Positions 7,198-41,968 of a stretch of DNA of 64,000 bases are shown here, in pieces. Position 1 is the stretch's first letter; each line of letters begins with the position of its first letter. A model generated the notes under the pieces. The model was not told where the DNA came from, searched no databases, and saw only the letters and a program-made list of their open reading frames with translations. The stretch lies in assembly GCA_963707275.1 (NCBI GenBank), contig CAVPPH010000010.1, positions 111,106 through 175,105 on the forward strand. Direction: 5' to 3'. The position numbers and the translations under genes are program-made. The DNA comes from an uncultured Chloroflexia bacterium. Lineage in GTDB: Bacteria; Chloroflexota; Anaerolineae; JAAEKA01.

Positions 7198-8341
<1,144 letters not shown>

Positions 8342-33299: not shown

Positions 33300-33415
33300 G
33301 CCTCCAGTGGCCCGCACCCGGTCGAGTTTGGGAGCGGGCCAGCCGCGCTAGAAACAAAGAAAAATCGCCGAGAAGTTGACTGCGTCGAGCCGGCGGATTG
33401 AAAGGACAAAGCATT

Positions 33416-34064
33416 ATGGAAGACTATTCTCTTCAAGTAGCGATCCGCGATGCCAACGGCGTGAAGCCGGGCAAACTGCGCGCCGAGGGCTTTACGCCGG
33501 CGGTTGTGTACGGCGCTGAGATTGCGCCGCAAATCGTGCAGATCGAAAGCCGGGAACTGGACCGCCTGCTGGCCCGCGGCGGCGCCGCTCACCTGGTCAA
33601 CCTGGAGGGTGAGGAATTCGCCAAGACACGCGTGCTGATCCGCGAGGTCCAGCGCCACCCTGTCCGCCGCGAGGTGTTGCACATCGATTTCGTGCGCGTC
33701 TCGGCCGGCCAGAAAATTCGCATGGCTGTCGCATTGCACCTGGTCGGCGAAGCACCGGCCCTGGAAGAGGGCGCTATCCTCCTGCAGAATGTTCGACTCG
33801 ATCGAGATCGAGTGCCTTCCAGACAGCTTGCCATCGCACATTGAGGTCGATGTCTCCGGTTTGGTCCATCTCCACGACCGGATCTATGCCACGGATCTCA
33901 AGCTGCCGCCGGGCGTGGAACTGTACGGCGATTACAGCGACGAAGCGTTGATCAGCCTCAGCATCCCGCGCAGTGCCTCTACCGAGGAAGAGGTCGAAGA
34001 GGAAGAAGGCGTCGAAGAGCCGGAGATATTGTCCGACCGCCACGAAGAAGAAGACGAAGACTAG
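33416..34064 (+). CDS. rplY: 50S ribosomal protein L25/Ctc (frameshift near 33795)
   Basis: LRAEGFTPAVVYG, EVQRHPV, HIDFVRV, ECLPDSLPSHIEVDVS, acidic tail. Confidence 0.93.
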
Positions 34065-34086
34065 GCCAGTTTCGCCTGATACAATG

Positions 34087-34121
34087 CGAGCACCAACACC
34101 CGTTGGTGCTCGTTTTCTTTC
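34087..34121 (+). terminator. Intrinsic terminator after rplY
   Basis: CGAGCACCAAC-ACCC-GTTGGTGCTCG followed by TTTTCTTT. Confidence 0.85.
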
Positions 34122-34399
34122 TGGGGGTAACGACGAGCGAGTCGTTTCCAATAGGTTAGCTATTCAGTCTTCACTGTGACGCCACGCCCACGGAGGCGGG
34201 ATCCACTCTTCACGAGCGCCAAACTCCCACCTCCGGGGCTTGGGCGTGACGGGTGGGTTGTTACCCAAAATGAACAGTAAATGAGCAGGTGTTGATCTGG
34301 AGTCAGTTGTCGGTCGCTGGTACAATATGAACTGCCGATGTCGCCGTGCCAGAGGCAGCGGACCGGCACCTTCTCTCACAAGCCAAGAAATGAGGCTCG

Positions 34400-37087
34400 A
34401 TGGCAGTCAAGGCACAAACCACTCGCAGCATTTCGTTCACTGACCATTTGAAGCAGGCATTGGAACTGATCGACAATTCGGAAGCGCTGGGCGGCCAGTC
34501 GCCGCTGGCCGCGCCCTATTTTCTGGGCGATGCGCTGCGCGGCGTCGATGCGACCCCGGCGGCACGGGGCGCGGCCCTCCGCGCCGCTATCGACCGCTGT
34601 CTCGTGACCATGTGGGGCGGTCCGCTGCCGGACGACGGCCACGCCATGCTGGACGAGGCGCTGAGCGAGGAGGAGCAGGGCGGACGTTACGACTGCCTGA
34701 TCCTGGAGCTCAACTACCTCGGACAGCGCTACCGGCCCGTGCCGCGCAACCAGGCCGCGATCTACCACGACATCCTGCACATCTCACGGCCGACGCATGA
34801 CCGCCACCTGCGCAACGCGATCGGTCGTCTGGGCGCGCTGCTGCTGCAGCAACTGCGGCCCGCGGTGCGTCCGGAGCAGCCCATCGCCCCGCCCGCGCTG
34901 ATCGGCCGCGACCAGCTTCAGCAGCAGGCGCTGGACGACCTGGAAGCGCGGCAAGTCGGTCAGCCTCACCGGCCCGGGCGGGGTCGGCAAGACCTCTCTG
35001 GCCGCGACGCTGGCGGACGACTGGATTTCGCCGGCCGTCTTCTGGTACACCTTCCGCCCGACCTTCAACGACCAGTTGGAGAGCCTGCTTTTCGCCCTCG
35101 GCTATTTTCTGCACGGCCAGGGCGCGTCGGCGCTCTGGCATCAACTGGTGGCCGATGGCGGGCGCATCAAGGACAGCGGGCTGGCGCTGGGGTTGGCGCT
35201 GGCAGATCTGGCCAGCCTGCGGCATCGCCCGCTGCTCTGCTTCGACGAACTTGATTTCCTGCGCCCGCTGACCCAGGACCAGGCCAAACCAAACCATGTC
35301 CAGATCCTCGAATTCCTGGACAGCCTGCGCGGCCACACAGCCCTGCTGCTGATCGGCCAGCGCAGCTACTGGGAAAGCGACGCCATCTACCGGCTGGACG
35401 GGCTGACCGCCGAGCAGTTCGACGCCTGGCTGACATCGCTGTCGATCTCTCATTCACCCGCCGACGCAGCGCAGCTTCACGCCTACACGGCCGGCAATCC
35501 GCGTCTGGCGGAGCTTTGCATCGCCCTCTTCAGGCGGCCGGCGGCGAGTCGCTGGCCGCCGTGCTGGATCAGCTGCCGCGCTTCCAGGCGCTGCTTCCCC
35601 TCTGGCTGCGCCTGGAACGCCGGCTACCGCTGGCGGAACGGCAGGTATTGCAGGCGTTATCCGTCTTTCGCTCGCCCGCGCCCGCCGATGCGTGGCTGGG
35701 CGACGAGGAAGCGGCCGACGCGCTGGCGCAGTTGATCAGCCGGCGGCTGGTGCAGAGCGACGAGCAGGGCGGCGTCACGCTGCTGCCGGCGCTGGGCGAG
35801 GTCGTCTACGCCGAGCTGCCGGTGGAAACTCAGGAAGAGCTGCACGGGCAGGCCGCCCAGATCCGCGCCGAACGCGGTGAGTACACCGCGGCCGCGTACC
35901 ACCTCTACGCTGCCGGCCAGCCGGACGCAGCCGTCGAGCTGTGGTATCCGCAGCGCGCCCAGGAGATCAACCGCGGCCAGGCCGGCGCGGCGCTGGCGAT
36001 CTTCTCGCAGATTTCCCAGCGCCGCCTGACCACGCGATCGCCGCAAGGAACTGCTATCTGCTGCGCAGCGAGCTGCACGAACTGATCGGCGAACCGGCGC
36101 GCGTCATCGACGAGCTGTCGTCCACGGAACTGGACCCGTCGATGACCCGGCCACGCCGGAAGCCATGCTGCGCCTCGGCCACGCGCAGGAAGCCCAGGGA
36201 CAGGCCCGATGCGGCGCTGGACACCTATCAGGCCGGGCTGGAGACGGTCACCCATTTGTTGCGCCAGGGCGCGCAGCTGCACGTCCAGCGCAGCCTGACG
36301 CATCTGCGCCAGCGGGAGATGCAGCAGGCGTGGAAGGAGGCAAACCTGGCCCGCTTCCACGCTGAGACCATGCTGGGCGTGGTGCACGATCAGCGCGGCG
36401 ACTACGAGACCGCCCGCGCTCACTACGTCAGCGCGCTGGCGACGGCGGAGGAGGCGGACTACGAGGCGGGCATGGCGCAGAGCCATCACTATCTGGCGAT
36501 GCTGGCCGGACGTCACGGCAACATGGACGAGGCGCTGCCGCATTTCGAGCAGGCCATCGACTTCTACGAGCACATCGGCGACCGCGTCAACCGCGAGTAC
36601 GTGCGCAGCAACCTGGCCAGCGCCTACATCCAGACCGGCCAGTTCGCCGAGGCGCTGGCGCCGGCCGAGCAGGCGATGCGTTTCTTCGAGGCCATGGGCA
36701 ACCCCTTCCGCACCGCCCAGAACGCTTCGAACCTGGCGGAAGCGCACGCCGAGCTGGGCAACCTGGAGCCGGCGCAGCAGTACGCCGAGCTGGTGCTGGC
36801 ACAGGAGGAGCCGCACAGCCATCCCTACGCGCTCTACACGCTGGGCACAGTCTACAAGCAGCGCGGCGACTGGGAGCGTTCCTGGCTCTCCTACGATCAC
36901 TGCCGCAAGATGGCAGAGGCCAACGACGACACCTATCTGCTGGCATTTGCCTGGCGCGCGCTGGGTGAAGTACACGACAGCCAGACAAGAGCAGGCCAGC
37001 GCTGACGCCGCCTTTGCGCAGGCGTTGGAACTGTTCCAGCGCCTCAACATCGCCGAAGAAGTGCGCCGTACTGAGGAATTGATGTAA
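34400..37087 (+). CDS. HTH-STAND (NB-ARC-like) ATPase-TPR protein, putative transcriptional activator (frameshifted)
   Basis: N-terminal HTH-like QAAIYHDILHISRPTHDRHLRNAI; Walker A LTGPGGVGKTSLA; Walker B LLCFDELD; TAGNPRL; C-terminal TPR helices. Confidence 0.8.
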
Positions 37088-37091
37088 GAGC

Positions 37092-37147
37092 GTGATGCAA
37101 AACACCTACAACGTGATGCATTCCGCAGCCCTTTTGCGTTTTATACT
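37092..37147 (+). promoter_or_regulatory. Double-box promoter 1
   Basis: GTGATGCA (37092), GTGATGCA (37113), 21 bp, TATACT (37142). Confidence 0.75.
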
Positions 37148-37205
37148 GTGTGTGTCGAAACAACACCTGACGATCACTAAGCAAGGACAACAAGGAGCAA
37201 CTGAA

Positions 37206-37964
37206 ATGAAACTGGTTTGGAGAATTCTACTGGCGATCACCCTGGTTCTGGGCATGACCTCTTCCCTGGCAACGGCAACCCCTGCCGCCGCGGATGCAGA
37301 GTACGGCTATCTGTGGTCGCTGGACTTCGACTTTGAACATGACTTCAACGGCGTGCTGACCATCCGGGTCGGCCCGTGGGAGAACGGCAATCTGGTGTCG
37401 GTGGACGAGACCTCGACCGCGATCGTTGGCTGCCGGCCCATTGGGCCTGTGGCGCTGAACGCTGGCGACGCCGTCTTCGATGGCGGGCACCTGGAGTGTT
37501 ACCTGGACCTGGCGTCGGTGGTGCTCAACAACCACAAGCTGACCGTTGAGCCGGTGGACAACTACGGCAGCATCCTGCTGCGTACACGGGTCAAGAGCAC
37601 AGCCAACACGGTCGCTCCCATGTTCACGCACCCGGACGCGTCCTACAAGATCGACTTCACCAGCACGTTCGCAGTCACGCCGCAACAGGAGTTGTGGAAC
37701 AACGCCGGCCTGCTGCAGGCAACCTTCCCCGGCGTGACCATCAACACCTGGCAGCCGTACACCTACCAGTACACCTGCATCTGGGGCGGCCCGTGCGACG
37801 CGACCTTCCGGGTCGGCCCGCAGCTGCAGAACATGCCCACCGCGGGCGGGCGGGTGCGCTTCTCCACCGGGCCGACGGTCTTCGAGATCGGCCGCGACGG
37901 CGGCGACCTCTTCTACGGACGAATGTCCTCACTGCGCATCGATCCGGGGAACTCCGCCCACTGA
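37206..37964 (+). CDS. Secreted protein, possibly LamG/concanavalin-like beta-sandwich
   Basis: Signal peptide MKLVWRILLAITLVLG..A; AAGGAG RBS; AVFDGG and C-terminal FEIG...FYGRMSSLRID pattern. Confidence 0.7.
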   Translation: MKLVWRILLAITLVLGMTSSLATATPAAADAEYGYLWSLDFDFEHDFNGVLTIRVGPWENGNLVSVDETSTAIVGCRPIGPVALNAGDAVFDGGHLECYLDLASVVLNNHKLTVEPVDNYGSILLRTRVKSTANTVAPMFTHPDASYKIDFTSTFAVTPQQELWNNAGLLQATFPGVTINTWQPYTYQYTCIWGGPCDATFRVGPQLQNMPTAGGRVRFSTGPTVFEIGRDGGDLFYGRMSSLRIDPGNSAH

Positions 37965-37987
37965 TCACAACAAGCTAACCAGCTTTC

Positions 37988-38024
37988 AAAAGTCCGACTT
38001 CTTCCGTGAAGTCGGACTTTTTTT
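37988..38024 (+). terminator. Intrinsic terminator
   Basis: AAAAGTCCGACTTC-N6-GAAGTCGGACTTTT plus T tract. Confidence 0.85.
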
Positions 38025-38110
38025 GTGCTCTCGAGCGTTCGTAGCAGGCGACTCCAGCGCCGTGTCGAGCCCAACACGACGCTGAAGCGCCTGATACGAA
38101 CGGGCCAAGC

Positions 38111-38166
38111 ATGATGCATAGGCCCCGATCTGTGAGACATCCGCGACCCCGATCCGGTAGTATCCT
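38111..38166 (+). promoter_or_regulatory. Double-box promoter 2
   Basis: ATGATGCA (38111), GTGAGACA (38132), 21 bp, TATCCT (38161). Confidence 0.7.
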
Positions 38167-38224
38167 ATGGTTACACAGATGAATGTGGCAGCACATAACC
38201 GTACCAACCCAAGGAGAACCAACG

Positions 38225-38671
38225 ATGAACCAGCAGCAGATCGAGATTGTACAGCGCACCTTTGATATGGCCGCACCGATGGCCGACGAGTTGGCCGACC
38301 GCTTCTACACACGGCTTTTCGAGCTGGATCCGGCGTTGCGTCCCATGTTTCATGGCGACATGAAGCAGCAAGGTCAGAAGCTGATGACCGTGCTGGCGCT
38401 GGCCGTGCGTGGCCTCAGCAAGCCAGAGACCATTATCCAGGCCGTGCAGCGGCTGGGCCAGCGTCACGCCGGTTACGGCGTCCAGACGCACCACTACGCC
38501 ACCGTGGGCGAGGCGCTGCTCGCGACCCTGGCCGAGCTTTTCGGGCCGGCCTTCAACGATGAGGTCCGGGCAGCCTGGACCGCCGCCTACACGCTGCTGG
38601 CAACCATCATGCAGGAAGCGGCAGCCGAAGGTGATGCAAGAAGCCCCATCCGTGAGGCAATCGCGGCCTGA
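38225..38671 (+). CDS. Single-domain globin (flavohemoglobin-like globin domain)
   Basis: FYTRLFELDPALRPMF, QGQKL, LGQRHAGYGV proximal His, HYATVGEALLATL, AWTAAY. Confidence 0.92.
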   Translation: MNQQQIEIVQRTFDMAAPMADELADRFYTRLFELDPALRPMFHGDMKQQGQKLMTVLALAVRGLSKPETIIQAVQRLGQRHAGYGVQTHHYATVGEALLATLAELFGPAFNDEVRAAWTAAYTLLATIMQEAAAEGDARSPIREAIAA

Positions 38672-38686
38672 GAGCCGTGTCATAAT
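38631..38686 (+). promoter_or_regulatory. Double-box promoter 3, overlapping the globin 3' end
   Basis: GTGATGCA (38631), GTGAGGCA (38652), 21 bp, TGn-CATAAT (38681). Confidence 0.75.
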
Positions 38687-38738
38687 AACCATGTCACAGC
38701 AGTGACTACCAACCAACCGTTTCACAAGGAGCCCAACC

Positions 38739-40185
38739 ATGTTTCAACAAACAGCACACACACCCGAGACCGGTCACGCAATCGTCATCGGCGGCAGTAT
38801 CGCCGGCATGTTGACCGCCCGGATACTGACCAATCACTTCGCCCAGGTCACGGTCATCGAGCGCGATGAACTACCCGACGGCCCGGCCTTCCGCAAGGGC
38901 GCCCCGCATGCCCGCCACGCCCACGGCCTGCTGGTGCGCGGCCAGCAGATCATGGAAGACCTCTTCCCCGGCCTGACCGAAGACCTGTGGGCGCAGGGCG
39001 CGATCCCCACCAACATGGGCCGCGACCTGACCCTCTACATCGGCGGCGCCAGGGTCAAGCCCTTCGAGGCCGATCTGGTGATCACCGGCAGCAGCCGGCC
39101 GTTGCTGGAGAACGCGATCTACAGCCGTCTGCGCCAGATGCCGCAGGTCCGCTTCCTGACGGGACGCGACGTGACCGGGCTGTGCACCGACGAGGCCAAC
39201 CGGCACGTCACCGGCATCCGCCTGCAAGAGCGGAGCAAGCACGGCCAGGCCGAGCAGGAACTGGCAGCCGATCTGGTAGTGGACGCCAGCGGACGCGGCT
39301 CGAAGCTGCCGACATGGCTGGAAGCGCTGGGCTATCAGCCGCCGGCTGAGACTACCGTCGACTCGCAGACCAGCTACACCACCCGCGATCTATCGTCGCC
39401 CGCACAACGCGCTTCCCTGGAAGGTGCTTGTACAACATGCCCATGGCGCCTGACCACAGCCGCGGCTGCATTCTGATCCCGATTGAAGGGGACCGCATGC
39501 TGGTGACCCTGATCGGCCTCAACGGCGACCAGGCACCGACCGATGAAGCAGGTTTCCTGGCCTATGCCCGCAGCCTGCCGGTCCCCGGCTTCCACGACGC
39601 GATTGCCGCCGCCGAGCCGCTGACCGAACCTTACGGCTACCGGCGGGCAGCCAATCGGCTGCGCCACTACGAGAAGCTGCCGCGCTACCTGGAGGGCGTG
39701 CTGGCGTTGGGCGACTCGGTCTACGCCCTGAACCCGGTCTACGGCCAGGGGATGACCGTCGCAGCGCTGGGCGCGCTGACGCTGGACGAATGCCTGCGCA
39801 CCCAGCAGCGCCGACGGCATGGCCGGTCTTGCCAGCCGCTTCCAGAAGCAACTGGCCAAGGTCAACGCCGGCCCGTGGCAGTTGGCTACCGGCCAGGATT
39901 TGCAGTGGCCCTGCGCCGCGGCCGGTCACAAGACCGATCCGGTCACCCGGCTGGTGCAGCGTTACTTCGACCGGGTGCTGGCGGCCATGGTCGACAACGG
40001 CGAGGTTGCGCAGGCGTTTGCCCAGGTGCAGAACATGCTACAGCCGCCCACGATCCTCTTTCACCCGCGCATTGTCTGGCAGGTGCTGCGCGCCAGATCC
40101 AGCGCCAGACAGCGCAGGCTCGGCGCAGAAACTCAGCGGTCAAGGTGATGCACGACGCCCCATCCGTGAGGCATCGGCGGCGTAG
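38739..40185 (+). CDS. FAD-dependent monooxygenase/epoxidase-like oxidoreductase (frameshifted; end 40148 or 40185)
   Basis: IGGSIAG, VIERD, RHAHGLL, VVDASGRGS, LGDSVYALNPVYGQGMT motifs. Confidence 0.85.
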
Positions 40186-40201
40186 GAACCGTGTCGATAA
40201 T
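40145..40201 (+). promoter_or_regulatory. Double-box promoter 4, overlapping the monooxygenase 3' end
   Basis: GTGATGCA (40145), GTGAGGCA (40166), 22 bp, GATAAT (40196). Confidence 0.72.
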
Positions 40202-40256
40202 AAAGCGTGTCACAGCAGTGACGACAAACCAACCGTTTCAAAAGGAGAAACAAACC

Positions 40257-40748
40257 ATGAAGTTCGCAACGTTCGCAAAGATCGCAGCAGTCGCAGGAGT
40301 TATGATCGCCAGCATGTTCGGCCAGTCGCTTTCTGCTCAGGCCACCGAGCAGATCACCATGGGCTACACCAAGGCCGAATGGCAGACGGTCGATCCTCGC
40401 ACCCGCTTCGCCGCCGACCTGACGGTGATGGATGATGGCAGCGCCGCCGGCACCATCCAGATCCACAAGGCCAGCGATGTCACGCTGAAGCGCGGCGTCA
40501 TCAACGCCGCCAGCGGCCGGGTCATCTGCGACCGCGACGAGCCGGTGATGATCGTCGAAGGCACCTACTACGAGGAGATTGGCGGCACGCTGGTGGCCCG
40601 TGGACCGGCCAGCGCCGAGGTTCGCAAGGGCGGCAAGGCGGCGGCGGAGACATCGTCGTCTTCGACATCGATCGGTGTCACTTCCCAAAACAGCACGATT
40701 CGAAGCCCGTCGGGCGAGTTGACATTCCCGGTCAATCCCTGCCGATAG
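40257..40748 (+). CDS. Secreted hypothetical protein
   Basis: AAGGAG RBS, signal peptide MKFATFAKIAAVAGVMIASMFGQSLSAQA, beta-rich mature part. Confidence 0.7.
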   Translation: MKFATFAKIAAVAGVMIASMFGQSLSAQATEQITMGYTKAEWQTVDPRTRFAADLTVMDDGSAAGTIQIHKASDVTLKRGVINAASGRVICDRDEPVMIVEGTYYEEIGGTLVARGPASAEVRKGGKAAAETSSSSTSIGVTSQNSTIRSPSGELTFPVNPCR

Positions 40749-40768
40749 ACAAGCAACGCAAAACAAAG

Positions 40769-40801
40769 AAAAGCCGGTGCAGATGAACTGCGCCGGCTTT
40801 T
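40769..40801. terminator. Bidirectional intrinsic terminator
   Basis: AAAAGCCGGTGCAG-ATGAA-CTGCGCCGGCTTTT between convergent genes. Confidence 0.85.
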
Positions 40802-40834
40802 GTGATTCTCAGTTTGCGCGAGGTCACGCTCGTC

Positions 40835-41968
40835 CTATCCCAGCGAAATCCCCAGTTCGCGAGCCGTCTGTACAATGTCGCTGTCCAGCGGGACGGTGCG
40901 TGGCGTTCTGGCAACCCGCGAAAGCGGCAGGTCGGTCAGATACTCGCCGCGCAGCGCCACCATTCGCCCGGTCTTGCCGTCGGCGATGAGCCGCACCGCA
41001 GCCGCGCCGAAACGGGTTGCCAGCACCCGATCCGCGCCGCTGGGGGTGCCGCCGCGCTGGACGTGGCCCAGCACGGTCACCCGAATCTCGTAGCCAGCTT
41101 CTTCCGGTAGACTCTCCTGCTCGGCCAGCAGCCGCTCAGCCAGATAAAAGCCGATGCCGCCCAGCCGCGGCGCCTCCTGGCCCGCGATGCCCGCCCAGTA
41201 GATCTCCTGGCCATCCTTGGGCCGCGCGCCTTCGGCGACCACGATGATCGCCGAGCGCTGAACGTCCTGAAGCAGCGCTCCAGGCGCTCGCGGACCACGG
41301 CGACATCGAAGGGCTGTTCCGGGATCAGCACCACGTCCGCGCCGCCGCCAACGCCGGCATGCAGCGCGATCCAGCCCGCCTTGCGCCCCATGACCTCGAC
41401 GATCATCGCGCGGTGATGGCTCTCGGCGGTGGTGCGCAGGCGGTCGATGGCCTCGGTGGCGATGTTGACGGCGGTGTCGAAGCCGAAGCTGTACTCGGTG
41501 CCGTCCACGTCGTTGTCGATGGTTTTTGGGACGCCCACCAGCGGCGCGCCCATGTCGTGCAGCTCGCGCGCGATGCGCATGGTGCCGTCGCCGCCGATGA
41601 CCACGATCGCGTCCAGCCCCAGCTCCGCGATGCGCTCCATCACCCGCGGCGTCACGTCGATGACGATCTGGTCGCCCTTCAGTCGTTTGGTGTAGAGAAA
41701 GGGGTTGGTTCGGCTGGCAGCGCCGAGAATGGTGCCGCCACGCGCCAGATATGCCGTGCACCGAGTTGAGGGTCAGCGGAATGGCGGCGTTGGGGTCGTC
41801 GGTGACCAGTCCCTCGAACCCATCCTTGATGCCGACGACTTCCCAGCCGTGAACCGCGACCGCCGACTTGACGACAGCCCGGATCACTGCGTTCAGGCCG
41901 GGGCAGTCGCCGCCCGCTGTCAGAACGCCGATCCGCTCGATTCGCTTCTGCCGTCTGCGACTGTTCAT
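40835..41968 (-). CDS. pfkA: 6-phosphofructokinase (frameshifted)
   Basis: [41 protein letters not shown]. Confidence 0.93.

Follow-up and report, generated by a model that had tools for sequence, protein, structure and literature searches.

Does a gene for a STAND (signal transduction ATPase that has numerous domains) protein control the genes that follow it, and through which DNA sites? The question is raised by a stretch of 64,000 nucleotides (hereafter the window) from an uncultured Chloroflexota bacterium, corresponding to C10:111106-175105 of a 5.69-Mb, 15-contig assembly (the window's own genome, G000). In this window, a forward-strand gene at 34400-37087 encodes a protein with a putative helix-turn-helix (HTH), a P-loop domain and tetratricopeptide repeats (TPRs), and is followed by four genes, each preceded by a pair of short direct repeats. 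Here we describe a conserved, genome-rare paired box that stands at a fixed distance from a -10-like element and is tied in occurrence, position and type to a family of P-loop-TPR proteins. We consider it likely that the gene, referred to below as the regulator, encodes a STAND-type activator, similar to NOD-like receptors (NLR-like), of an uncharacterised Chloroflexota family which reads RTGAKGCA boxes in a local regulon. Our confidence is higher for the sites being promoters than for this protein being their binder.

Paired boxes in front of the four downstream genes

A preliminary description of the locus placed two 8-bp repeats and a -10-like hexamer ahead of each of the four downstream genes, and all four box pairs, of the form RTGATGCA-N13-GTGAKRCA and all on the forward strand, were found exactly where it had put them. 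Scores are given from a position weight matrix (PWM) built from 32 sites of this and related genomes, five of which are this genome's own. Promoter 1 (37092..37147) comprises boxes GTGATGCA at 37092-37099 and GTGATGCA at 37113-37120 and, after a gap of 21 bp, the hexamer TATACT at 37142-37147 (36.4 bits); orthologous sites occur in the closest relative (locus L002), in L003, in L023 and in others. Promoter 2 (38111..38166) has boxes ATGATGCA at 38111-38118 and GTGAGACA at 38132-38139, with TATCCT at 38161-38166 after 21 bp (47.7 bits). Promoter 3 (38631..38686), in which both boxes lie within the 3' end of the preceding globin open reading frame (ORF), has GTGATGCA at 38631-38638 and GTGAGGCA at 38652-38659, followed after 21 bp by CATAAT at 38681-38686, itself preceded by TGT (38.3 bits). 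Promoter 4 (40145..40201) carries the same two boxes, GTGATGCA at 40145-40152 and GTGAGGCA at 40166-40173, with GATAAT at 40196-40201 after 22 bp (42.7 bits).

The hexamer distances of 21, 21, 21 and 22 bp thus appear as first described, with a reservation for the fourth. Relative to L002, which reads GTGTC-ATAAT here, the window has a 1-bp insertion at 40196, and because the 22-bp gap and the GATAAT hexamer coincide with this insertion, we correct promoter 4 to CATAAT at 21 bp, which is probably its true layout, as in promoter 3. Allowing one mismatch, the 29-nt pattern matches four times in the window, compared with a mean of 0.03 in 100 dinucleotide-preserving shuffles, none of which reaches four. 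A consensus scan of 33900-41000 found no sigma-70-type -35/-10 promoter on the forward strand, in agreement with the earlier statement that a canonical -35 is absent.

At the predicted transcript starts of promoters 3 and 4, an identical perfect hairpin, GTCAC-AGCA-GTGAC, is present (38693-38706 and 40209-40222), and it also follows one site of L002 (GTCACAACAGTGAC); this hairpin could be a 5' stabiliser or a second operator.

Rarity of the box pair in the genome and a fifth site

To the single box GTGAKGCA, which occurs 252 times in the whole genome, the pair stands as a rare arrangement: a relaxed regular expression finds five pairs, namely the four local ones and C12:7212-7240 on the reverse strand. 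Similarly, a PWM scan of the whole genome returned five sites with 31.7-47.7 bits, the next best scoring 20.3 bits with no hexamer after it, and the reversed-sequence control gave nothing above 18 bits. Since the genome's own sites helped to build the matrix, the score gap below the five sites is the informative part of this result.

The fifth site (G000:C12:7212-7240, reverse strand) has the same layout, with TATCCT 21 bp past the proximal box and TGG before the hexamer. The idea of a local regulon of four promoters therefore holds for the four sites that adjoin the regulator and needs to be widened to five in the genome, one of them remote on C12. The fifth target is an ORF of 454 aa whose N-terminus resembles a signal peptide and which weakly matches trypsin (E 0.0067, below the cut-off). 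In our own reading this target (L001, G000:C12:5757-7240, reverse strand) has a TAAHC motif, and behind it lie more secreted ORFs containing repeated segments. Autoregulation was considered and set aside, as the PWM scan places no box pair upstream of the regulator.

Promoter layout across genomes

Across genomes, sequence is kept at the boxes and the hexamer, whereas spacers and leaders vary; each box position carries about 2 bits of information, and most of the spacer 0.1-0.8 bits. A hexamer with at least four of six matches to TATAAT, A2 and T6 being required, begins 20-22 bp past the proximal box in 30 of 33 unique sites, compared with 3.65% of shuffled flanks; the best-matching hexamer most often has its start at 21 bp (21 sites), less often at 20 bp (11 sites) and once at 22 bp. 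The hexamer is preceded by TGn in 19/33 sites. This is a class II-type layout, with a site that adjoins or overlaps the -35 position, a recognisable -10 and no -35, where the +1 positions assume a transcription start site (TSS) about 7 nt after the hexamer. A start there would put the box centres near -37.5 and -58.5, two turns apart on the same face of the helix.

Co-occurrence of box pairs and regulator

To survey the distribution of the regulator, we scanned one genome per species (GTDB set) for its N-terminal domain (N-domain) and obtained 36 loci. Box pairs of the window's type, below called group A, are present in 12 of these loci (22 pairs), all on the regulator strand and downstream of the regulator's start; the other 24 have no group-A box pair. 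The 12 box-bearing loci consist of 11 close orthologues and L023, with a best-segment N-domain identity of 45%. Within the window's order, the regulator is found in three of 18 genomes (G000, G412 and G413), and these are the only ones of the 18 with two or more motif matches. Two genomes of the order that have no regulator (G405 and G408) show one match each, inside repetitive GTGATGC/ATGATG runs.

Among the 15 genomes with a group-A regulator there are 28 matches, in 14 genomes, compared with a single match of the reversed-pattern control. Most of these matches sit close behind the regulator gene; 23 fall within about 20 kb of it on its own contig, and the remaining five are on other contigs. 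In an even sample of the phylum (401 genomes), the only true multi-match belongs to G000, and four genomes have single matches; by a rough count, the reversed-pattern control matches more often. Five matches in another genome of the sample (G002; contigs C61, C224 and C233) are false positives formed by (ATGATGC)n tandem repeats, and since such arrays mimic the box pair, 7-bp tandem repeats are best masked in automated scans. Two of the sampled genomes encode distant regulators (32-34% identity) and lack the motif. With its few carriers, the phylum sample is informative only on the rarity of the motif.

Collectively, these surveys favour the preliminary description, which had called for a scan of the genome and of related Chloroflexota for the paired motif and for a test of its co-occurrence with homologues of the regulator's N-terminal domain. 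It had also named the motif's presence in genomes that lack the regulator as evidence against the link, and in such genomes we found only single, chance-like matches.

Paralogous regulators and their boxes

Several groups can be told apart among the 36 N-domains, with differing putative recognition helices. Group A, with the helix SRPTHDRH, is accompanied by RTGATGCA-N13-RTGAKGCA, followed after N20-22 by a TATNNT-like hexamer, downstream of the regulator and on the same strand. For the other groups, boxes were sought blindly as 8-mers repeated at 20-22 bp. In group B, with the helix ARATYDRH, the search returned TTGAGACA-N13-TTGAGACA, then N21 and TATGCT, at 6/7 loci, in divergent orientation about 0.6-1.3 kb upstream. 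Group D, with the helix GRGPYFNH, has CAGGACA pairs with a 21-bp period and TATNNT 19-20 bp further on, in six of eight loci (11 sites), on the upstream side and the divergent strand.

Whole-genome scans separate the three box types. The B boxes match eight times in five group-B genomes, five of the matches being beside the regulator, compared with one control match, and they have no match in five genomes with group A only. The D boxes match 10 times in five group-D genomes, always on the regulator's contig, with no control match, and the A boxes give one chance-like match in the five group-D genomes and none in the five group-B genomes. Moreover, in a single genome of 14.3 Mb an A-type (L016) and a B-type (L022) regulator occur together, and next to each stand boxes of its own type. 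Judged from sequence comparison, the box type thus appears to change together with the regulator's putative recognition helix. The proposed link between the adjacent STAND protein and the box promoters accordingly gains support from co-occurrence, from position and from these paralogue-specific boxes.

At the group-B sites the ORF rule finds no gene within 350 nt, and in L024 the first ORF begins about 300 nt downstream. There (L024:6221-9330, reverse strand) the divergent promoter leads to an ORF of 182 aa which, from our own reading of its C-terminal HTH, resembles an extracytoplasmic function (ECF)-type sigma factor, followed by two ORFs that we read as resembling molybdopterin oxidoreductase or formate dehydrogenase, split at 7804/7853. 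The group-D box pairs precede a conserved protein of about 235 aa (MKLPYLGAHNPML...) at L031:6312-7016, L034:3331-4035, L035:547-1248 and L037:1602-2306 (reverse strand), and the leaders ahead of this protein contain a long perfect palindrome (ACCCTAAGGGTTT...AAACCCTTAGGGT).

The regulator protein and its family

The preliminary description had an HTH-STAND-TPR gene upstream of the promoters, and such a gene does lie at 34400-37087, on the forward strand, with an N-domain (residues ~1-165) that is helical and probably carries a sigma-region-4-like HTH, then a P-loop nucleotide-binding oligomerisation domain (NOD), then C-terminal TPRs. It is not, as had been implied, one open frame: a frame map divides it into at least seven segments. 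The reference for this comparison was L002, aligned to 22 kb of the window, whose regulator gene is intact (892 aa) and whose N-domain is 87% identical to the window copy. Relative to it, the window's regulator has nine 1-bp insertions (34950, 35532, 35536, 36034, 36056, 36130, 36139, 36203 and 36979). Single-base insertions are scattered in the same alignment over every gene of the region, mostly outside homopolymers. Because the same kind of insertion runs through all neighbouring genes, we read the nine in the regulator as likely errors of an uncorrected or unpolished long-read assembly, and for the same reason a pseudogene was considered and set aside. Since the assembly looks unpolished, ORF-based annotation will under-call genes in this genome (stated completeness 85%). 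Between 24000 and 44000, 1-bp insertions relative to L002 (e.g., 28838, 29058, 31119, 33794, 39388 and 41750) split many ORFs, and a ribosomal protein L25-like gene at 33398-34064 is also broken by them.

A search with the first 181 residues retrieved 92 homologues, mostly of about 880-960 aa (five are shorter, 362-804 aa), from records assigned to Caldilineales, Caldilineaceae, Litorilinea, Oscillochloris and Roseiflexaceae and named 'tetratricopeptide repeat protein' or unnamed; a profile search with the N-domain extends the family to at least 263 clusters. Conservation extends over the full length of the family's proteins, the columns averaging 56-58% identity. In alignments of 28 and 93 homologues, Walker A (GPGGVGKTS) and Walker B (LLCFDELD) hardly vary; both can be read in frame 2 of the window, and the family thereby carries the STAND P-loop signature (GxxxxGK[ST], hhhhD[DE]). 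In the intact orthologue, the NTPase region matches AAA_16 (E 9.6e-5), NACHT (4.2e-4) and nSTAND3 (2.2e-3), as well as AAA_22, all below the curated cut-offs, and precomputed Pfam lists of the homologues include PF13191, PF13401 and PF05729. The C-terminal repeat sensor is recognised by TPR_12 (E 3.2e-25 in the window fragment, 5.9e-23 in the intact orthologue). Among NCBIfam models, AfsR is the best match to the TPR region (E 6.7e-12; 44 bits against a cut-off of 1430, with only the TPR part covered). A PDB profile search with the regulator matches AfsR chains (8k60_I, E 1.1e-12) and PH0952 TPR sensors, and the TPR_MalT model matches the orthologue below threshold (E 2.8e-4).

The N-domain is modelled by AlphaFold as all-helical, with confidence (predicted local distance difference test, pLDDT, 90.6). 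Its most conserved block lies within residues 88-160 (RYDCLILELNY...IYxDILHISRPTHDRHLRxAVERLG). Modelled alone (pLDDT 80.8), these residues gave 13 Foldseek matches, of which 12 are sigma-factor or region-4 entries (template modelling score, TM, 0.43-0.60; E 4-9). Superposition on region 4 of SigL (3hug) gives TM 0.55-0.60 and a root mean square deviation of 2.7-3.3 over about 58-60 columns, with a non-significant E-value; further entries are 6dv9_F, 3n97 and 8jzt, the chain identities of the last two being unchecked. As leads, the nearest ESM Atlas clusters are from Chloroflexota, one having Sigma70_r4 in 15% of its members and another being auto-named 'ECF sigma factor domain-containing' with NB-ARC in 25%. 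From these models, we take the N-domain to be a new helical domain, with a probable sigma-4-like HTH as its second half.

Other known DNA-binding modules were also sought. Pfam gave no GerE/LuxR HTH in any fragment or in the intact orthologue, where the C-terminus is TPR to the end, and neither Trans_reg_C nor BTAD (SARP) matched the regulator even at E up to 10. The regulator is therefore not a member of the MalT family, since its putative DNA-binding domain is N-terminal and sigma-4-like rather than C-terminal and of the LuxR type. The Pfam models for Sigma70_r2, r4 and ECF did not match, nor did the whole 181-aa domain match a sigma-factor fold. An ECF-sigma reading of the N-domain was rejected as region 2 and a whole-domain fold match are both absent, and without region 2 the regulator is not a sigma factor.

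Putative target genes and history of the cluster

The first gene behind a box pair (target 1, 37206..37964, forward strand, as are all features of the cluster) encodes a secreted protein of 252 aa with a signal-peptide-like N-terminus and the motif YGYLWSLDFDF. No Pfam or NCBIfam family matches it; it is possibly a LamG-like jelly roll, given an ESM Atlas lead (0.90) to Laminin_G_3 clusters. Besides the regulator, it is the only gene conserved in 15/15 group-A loci, always immediately downstream and of 250-275 aa, and its homologues share the signal-peptide-like start and the motif (YGYLWSLDFDF / YAYYWSLTFDF). A terminator-like hairpin with a T-run follows at 37988..38021. Target 2 (38225..38671) is a single-domain globin of 148 aa (Pfam Globin, E 1.3e-17), and its orthologue matches the flavohaemoprotein model over the globin domain (E 3e-26); box-preceded globins are found in the window and in L002, L003, L004 and L014.

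Target 3 (38739..40185) resembles a monooxygenase dependent on flavin adenine dinucleotide (FAD), with FAD_binding_3 and DAO matches; its intact orthologue has 480 aa, and the window copy is frameshifted by four 1-bp insertions relative to L002 (39388, 39426, 39806 and 40105). Box-preceded genes of this type occur in the window and in L051/L052. Target 4 (40257..40748) is a secreted protein of 163 aa with a signal-like N-terminus (MKFATFAK...) and no known family, and has paralogues in related loci. The hairpin GCCGG...CCGGC with TTTTG at 40773..40802, read from the sequence and not in the terminator scan list, is likely the terminator of the cluster. Elsewhere, box pairs precede genes for a cytochrome P450 (L057, E 4.9e-94), for small secreted proteins without a family and, in L016 and L017, for large secreted proteins whose PKD, BACON or plastocyanin-like matches are weak and stay below threshold. 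Taken together, the related genomes suggest a family of regulators that turns on small groups of genes, mostly for secreted proteins.

In L002 and L003, an extra small secreted gene lies between the globin and the monooxygenase and is absent in the window, and L002 has a fifth, slightly degenerate pair (TTGATGCA...GTGAGACA) ahead of the monooxygenase. The segment 14560-15143 of L002 is missing from the window, and window positions 38618-38736 align to both L002 promoters (L002:14459-15260). From this alignment, the gene loss looks like a deletion by recombination between two paralogous promoters, which would also account for the likeness of promoters 3 and 4 over about 110 nt, leader included.

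Proposed mechanism and alternative explanations

From the patterns above and by analogy with characterised STAND proteins, we infer binding by the regulator, oligomerisation, activation rather than repression, a ligand, and the positions of the TSSs. The N-terminal sigma-region-4-like HTH would recognise the 8-bp box RTGAKGCA, while the C-terminal TPR sensor would receive a signal. If MalT and AfsR are taken as models, the P-loop NOD would then exchange its nucleotide, and the protein would oligomerise head to tail through the NOD. Two neighbouring protomers could thus sit on the two boxes, one 21-bp period (two helical turns) apart, and recruit RNA polymerase to promoters which have a good, often TGn-extended -10 and no -35. 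Five transcription units would be switched on, those of the LamG-like secreted protein, the globin, the FAD monooxygenase, the small secreted protein and the remote secreted protease-like gene.

An extension of this mechanism, which we put forward tentatively and regard as doubtful, is that recognition helix and box co-evolve (SRPTHDRH with RTGAKGCA, ARATYDRH with TTGAGACA, GRGPYFNH with CAGGACA) and that a sigma-4-like module on a STAND switch serves as a detachable, signal-gated stand-in for the absent -35 contact. Equally tentative is its corollary of a large, diversified NLR-like family in which each paralogue insulates its own small cassette, in group A mostly of secreted proteins. The ever-adjacent LamG-like secreted protein could be part of the sensing loop. 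If this extension is true, a new type of DNA-binding domain would come with a natural specificity code that can be read.

Several observations weigh against the regulator as a STAND activator acting through these boxes. The assignment of the sigma-4-like HTH is the weakest link of the argument, as every Foldseek E-value lies between 4 and 9; the whole 181-aa model has no PDB fold match better than E 0.9, and no Pfam family passes for these residues, HTH_10 being seen in only 2/10 members (E 0.03-0.12). The co-occurrence is largely physical linkage, given that 23/28 sites are on the regulator's contig, and the same pattern would be expected of a cassette that is passed on whole and read by a different factor; moreover, genomes of close kin are not independent, so that the counts overstate the number of independent events. 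Some loci depart from the pattern. One genome, G427, has the regulator without a strict match, its locus holding a one-mismatch pair, CTGATGCA-N13-GTGATGCA, with TACTCT at 21 bp, directly after the regulator; L005 and L016 have similar one-mismatch pairs. L011 has no box pair in the 330 bp after its regulator, and group C (L018, L019, L021 and L025) gave no shared box by the simple 8-mer method. The B and D motifs were derived post hoc from the same loci in which they were then counted, and the whole-genome and cross-group scans are therefore the more independent part of that evidence. For the window's own regulator copy, known from a single assembly and frameshifted nine times, decay is a less likely alternative to assembly errors.

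These points lend themselves to the view that the boxes are real and are read by another trans-factor, either an unlinked transcription factor or a specialised sigma factor, with the STAND protein co-inherited or acting as an upstream signalling partner. The DNA-binding assignment of the N-domain consists of non-significant fold matches with no Pfam family behind it, the co-occurrence is mostly linkage within one cassette, and the first gene after the group-B boxes is, in our own reading, ECF-sigma-like, so that sigma factors do occur in such cassettes. We nevertheless consider this view unlikely, since the 15 group-A loci share no further candidate regulator, sites also occur on other contigs of regulator-bearing genomes, genomes without the regulator show only single, chance-like matches, and the box sequence changes with the regulator's putative recognition helix. 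A sigma factor would moreover face the gap of 21-22 bp from the proximal box to the -10, which exceeds the spacing usable by a -35/-10 pair of the sigma-70 family.

The sign of regulation can be argued separately. Promoters with a TGn-extended -10 can function without a -35, TGn is present in 19/33 sites, and the proximal box abuts the spot where sigma region 4 would sit, all of which would suit a STAND protein that binds the boxes mainly as a repressor or dual regulator and occludes the -35 region of promoters which RNA polymerase could use by itself by virtue of their extended -10. This we judge to be quite unlikely: 14/33 sites are without TGn, many hexamers are weak (TATCCT, TATGCT, CACAAT), and direct repeats near -37.5 and -58.5 on one DNA face form the layout of a class II activator. 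In addition, the characterised STAND regulators MalT and AfsR are described as activators in the accounts consulted (PMC4381067, PMC10936776).

Finally, that the repeats are non-regulatory, as remnants of duplication or recombination or as a transcribed RNA element of the 5' leaders, is hardly credible, for although promoters 3 and 4 are alike into the leader and, compared with L002, a gene has dropped out of the cluster between two such repeats, conservation across genomes is confined to the boxes and the hexamer, the boxes lie upstream of the -10-like hexamer and are thus not transcribed from it, and paralogue groups keep the architecture with different box sequences. An Rfam scan of 33900-41000 returned no family at threshold and only three sub-threshold, chance-like matches (E up to 1), and an RNA element was set aside.

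Comparison with known systems

In mechanism, the regulator would work like MalT and AfsR, by analogy, while being a member of neither. MalT of Escherichia coli, a STAND activator of the LAL type, has its proximal box near -37.5/-38.5, close to where the proximal box is expected here, and its DNA-binding domain is C-terminal and of the LuxR type, in contrast to the N-terminal, sigma-4-like module without GerE/LuxR match described above. Both proteins combine a P-loop NOD with a helical-repeat sensor, but the box sequence of MalT differs from RTGAKGCA, and a strict 21-bp period is not established for its promoters. MalT is driven by its inducer to multimerise and then binds cooperatively to several short repeated boxes in promoters that lack a -35 (PMC4381067, PMC10427625).

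In AfsR of Streptomyces coelicolor, a neighbouring pair of N-terminal DNA-binding protomers occupies two direct repeats, beside or across the -35 region of promoters whose -35 is poor, and makes contact with RNA polymerase; its DNA binder is an OmpR-type winged helix with BTAD, and the afs box consists of two adjacent 11-bp repeats centred at -29.5 (PMC10936776). The domain order is the same as here, namely an N-terminal DNA-binding module, the NOD and a C-terminal TPR region, and it is to the TPR region of AfsR that the regulator's comes closest among the NCBIfam models. The boxes of the window differ in being of 8 bp, 21 bp apart and centred near -37.5/-58.5, and no SARP or BTAD domain was found in the regulator.

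GutR has an N-terminal HTH, an NTPase and TPRs and activates glucitol genes; the likeness is one of architecture only. A 2026 survey of prokaryotic STANDs counts this Bacillus subtilis protein among the STAND regulators of transcription; the papers on such regulators that it cites are only three (its references 26-28), for MalT, GutR and AfsR (PMC13581612). A cyanobacterial 'Sigma70_r4_2 - NB-ARC - TPR_MalT' architecture, labelled SigR, has been catalogued in a survey of domain architectures (PMC11119718) and, by its description, shares the three-part architecture with an N-terminal sigma-region-4-type HTH. The passages on SigR in that survey present it as a domain pattern among sigma-like proteins and give no binding site, regulon or mechanism (PMC11119718). 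The Chloroflexota family differs from SigR in having no Pfam r4 match and about 90 additional helical residues before the HTH.

Full-text literature searches found nothing on this Chloroflexota family or on the motif, which agrees with the earlier remark that no regulon with this motif had been described; supplements might list the architecture. For this family a putative DNA site, a promoter architecture, target genes and three paralogue box variants can now be read from genomes. They open the questions of how an NLR-like switch places DNA-binding modules a fixed two turns apart, how it replaces -35 recognition and which residues set box specificity. They also give an uncommon way into the gene regulation of Caldilineae and Anaerolineae, which are poorly studied and mostly uncultured, and point to a set of co-regulated secreted proteins without assigned function. 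Set against the known systems, the STAND activator type is already familiar, and what is new here are the putative DNA-binding module, the box, the strict two-turn spacing and the paralogue-specific boxes. To MalT, AfsR and GutR, our analysis adds a family of at least 263 clusters whose members have so far been labelled 'tetratricopeptide repeat protein' or left unnamed.

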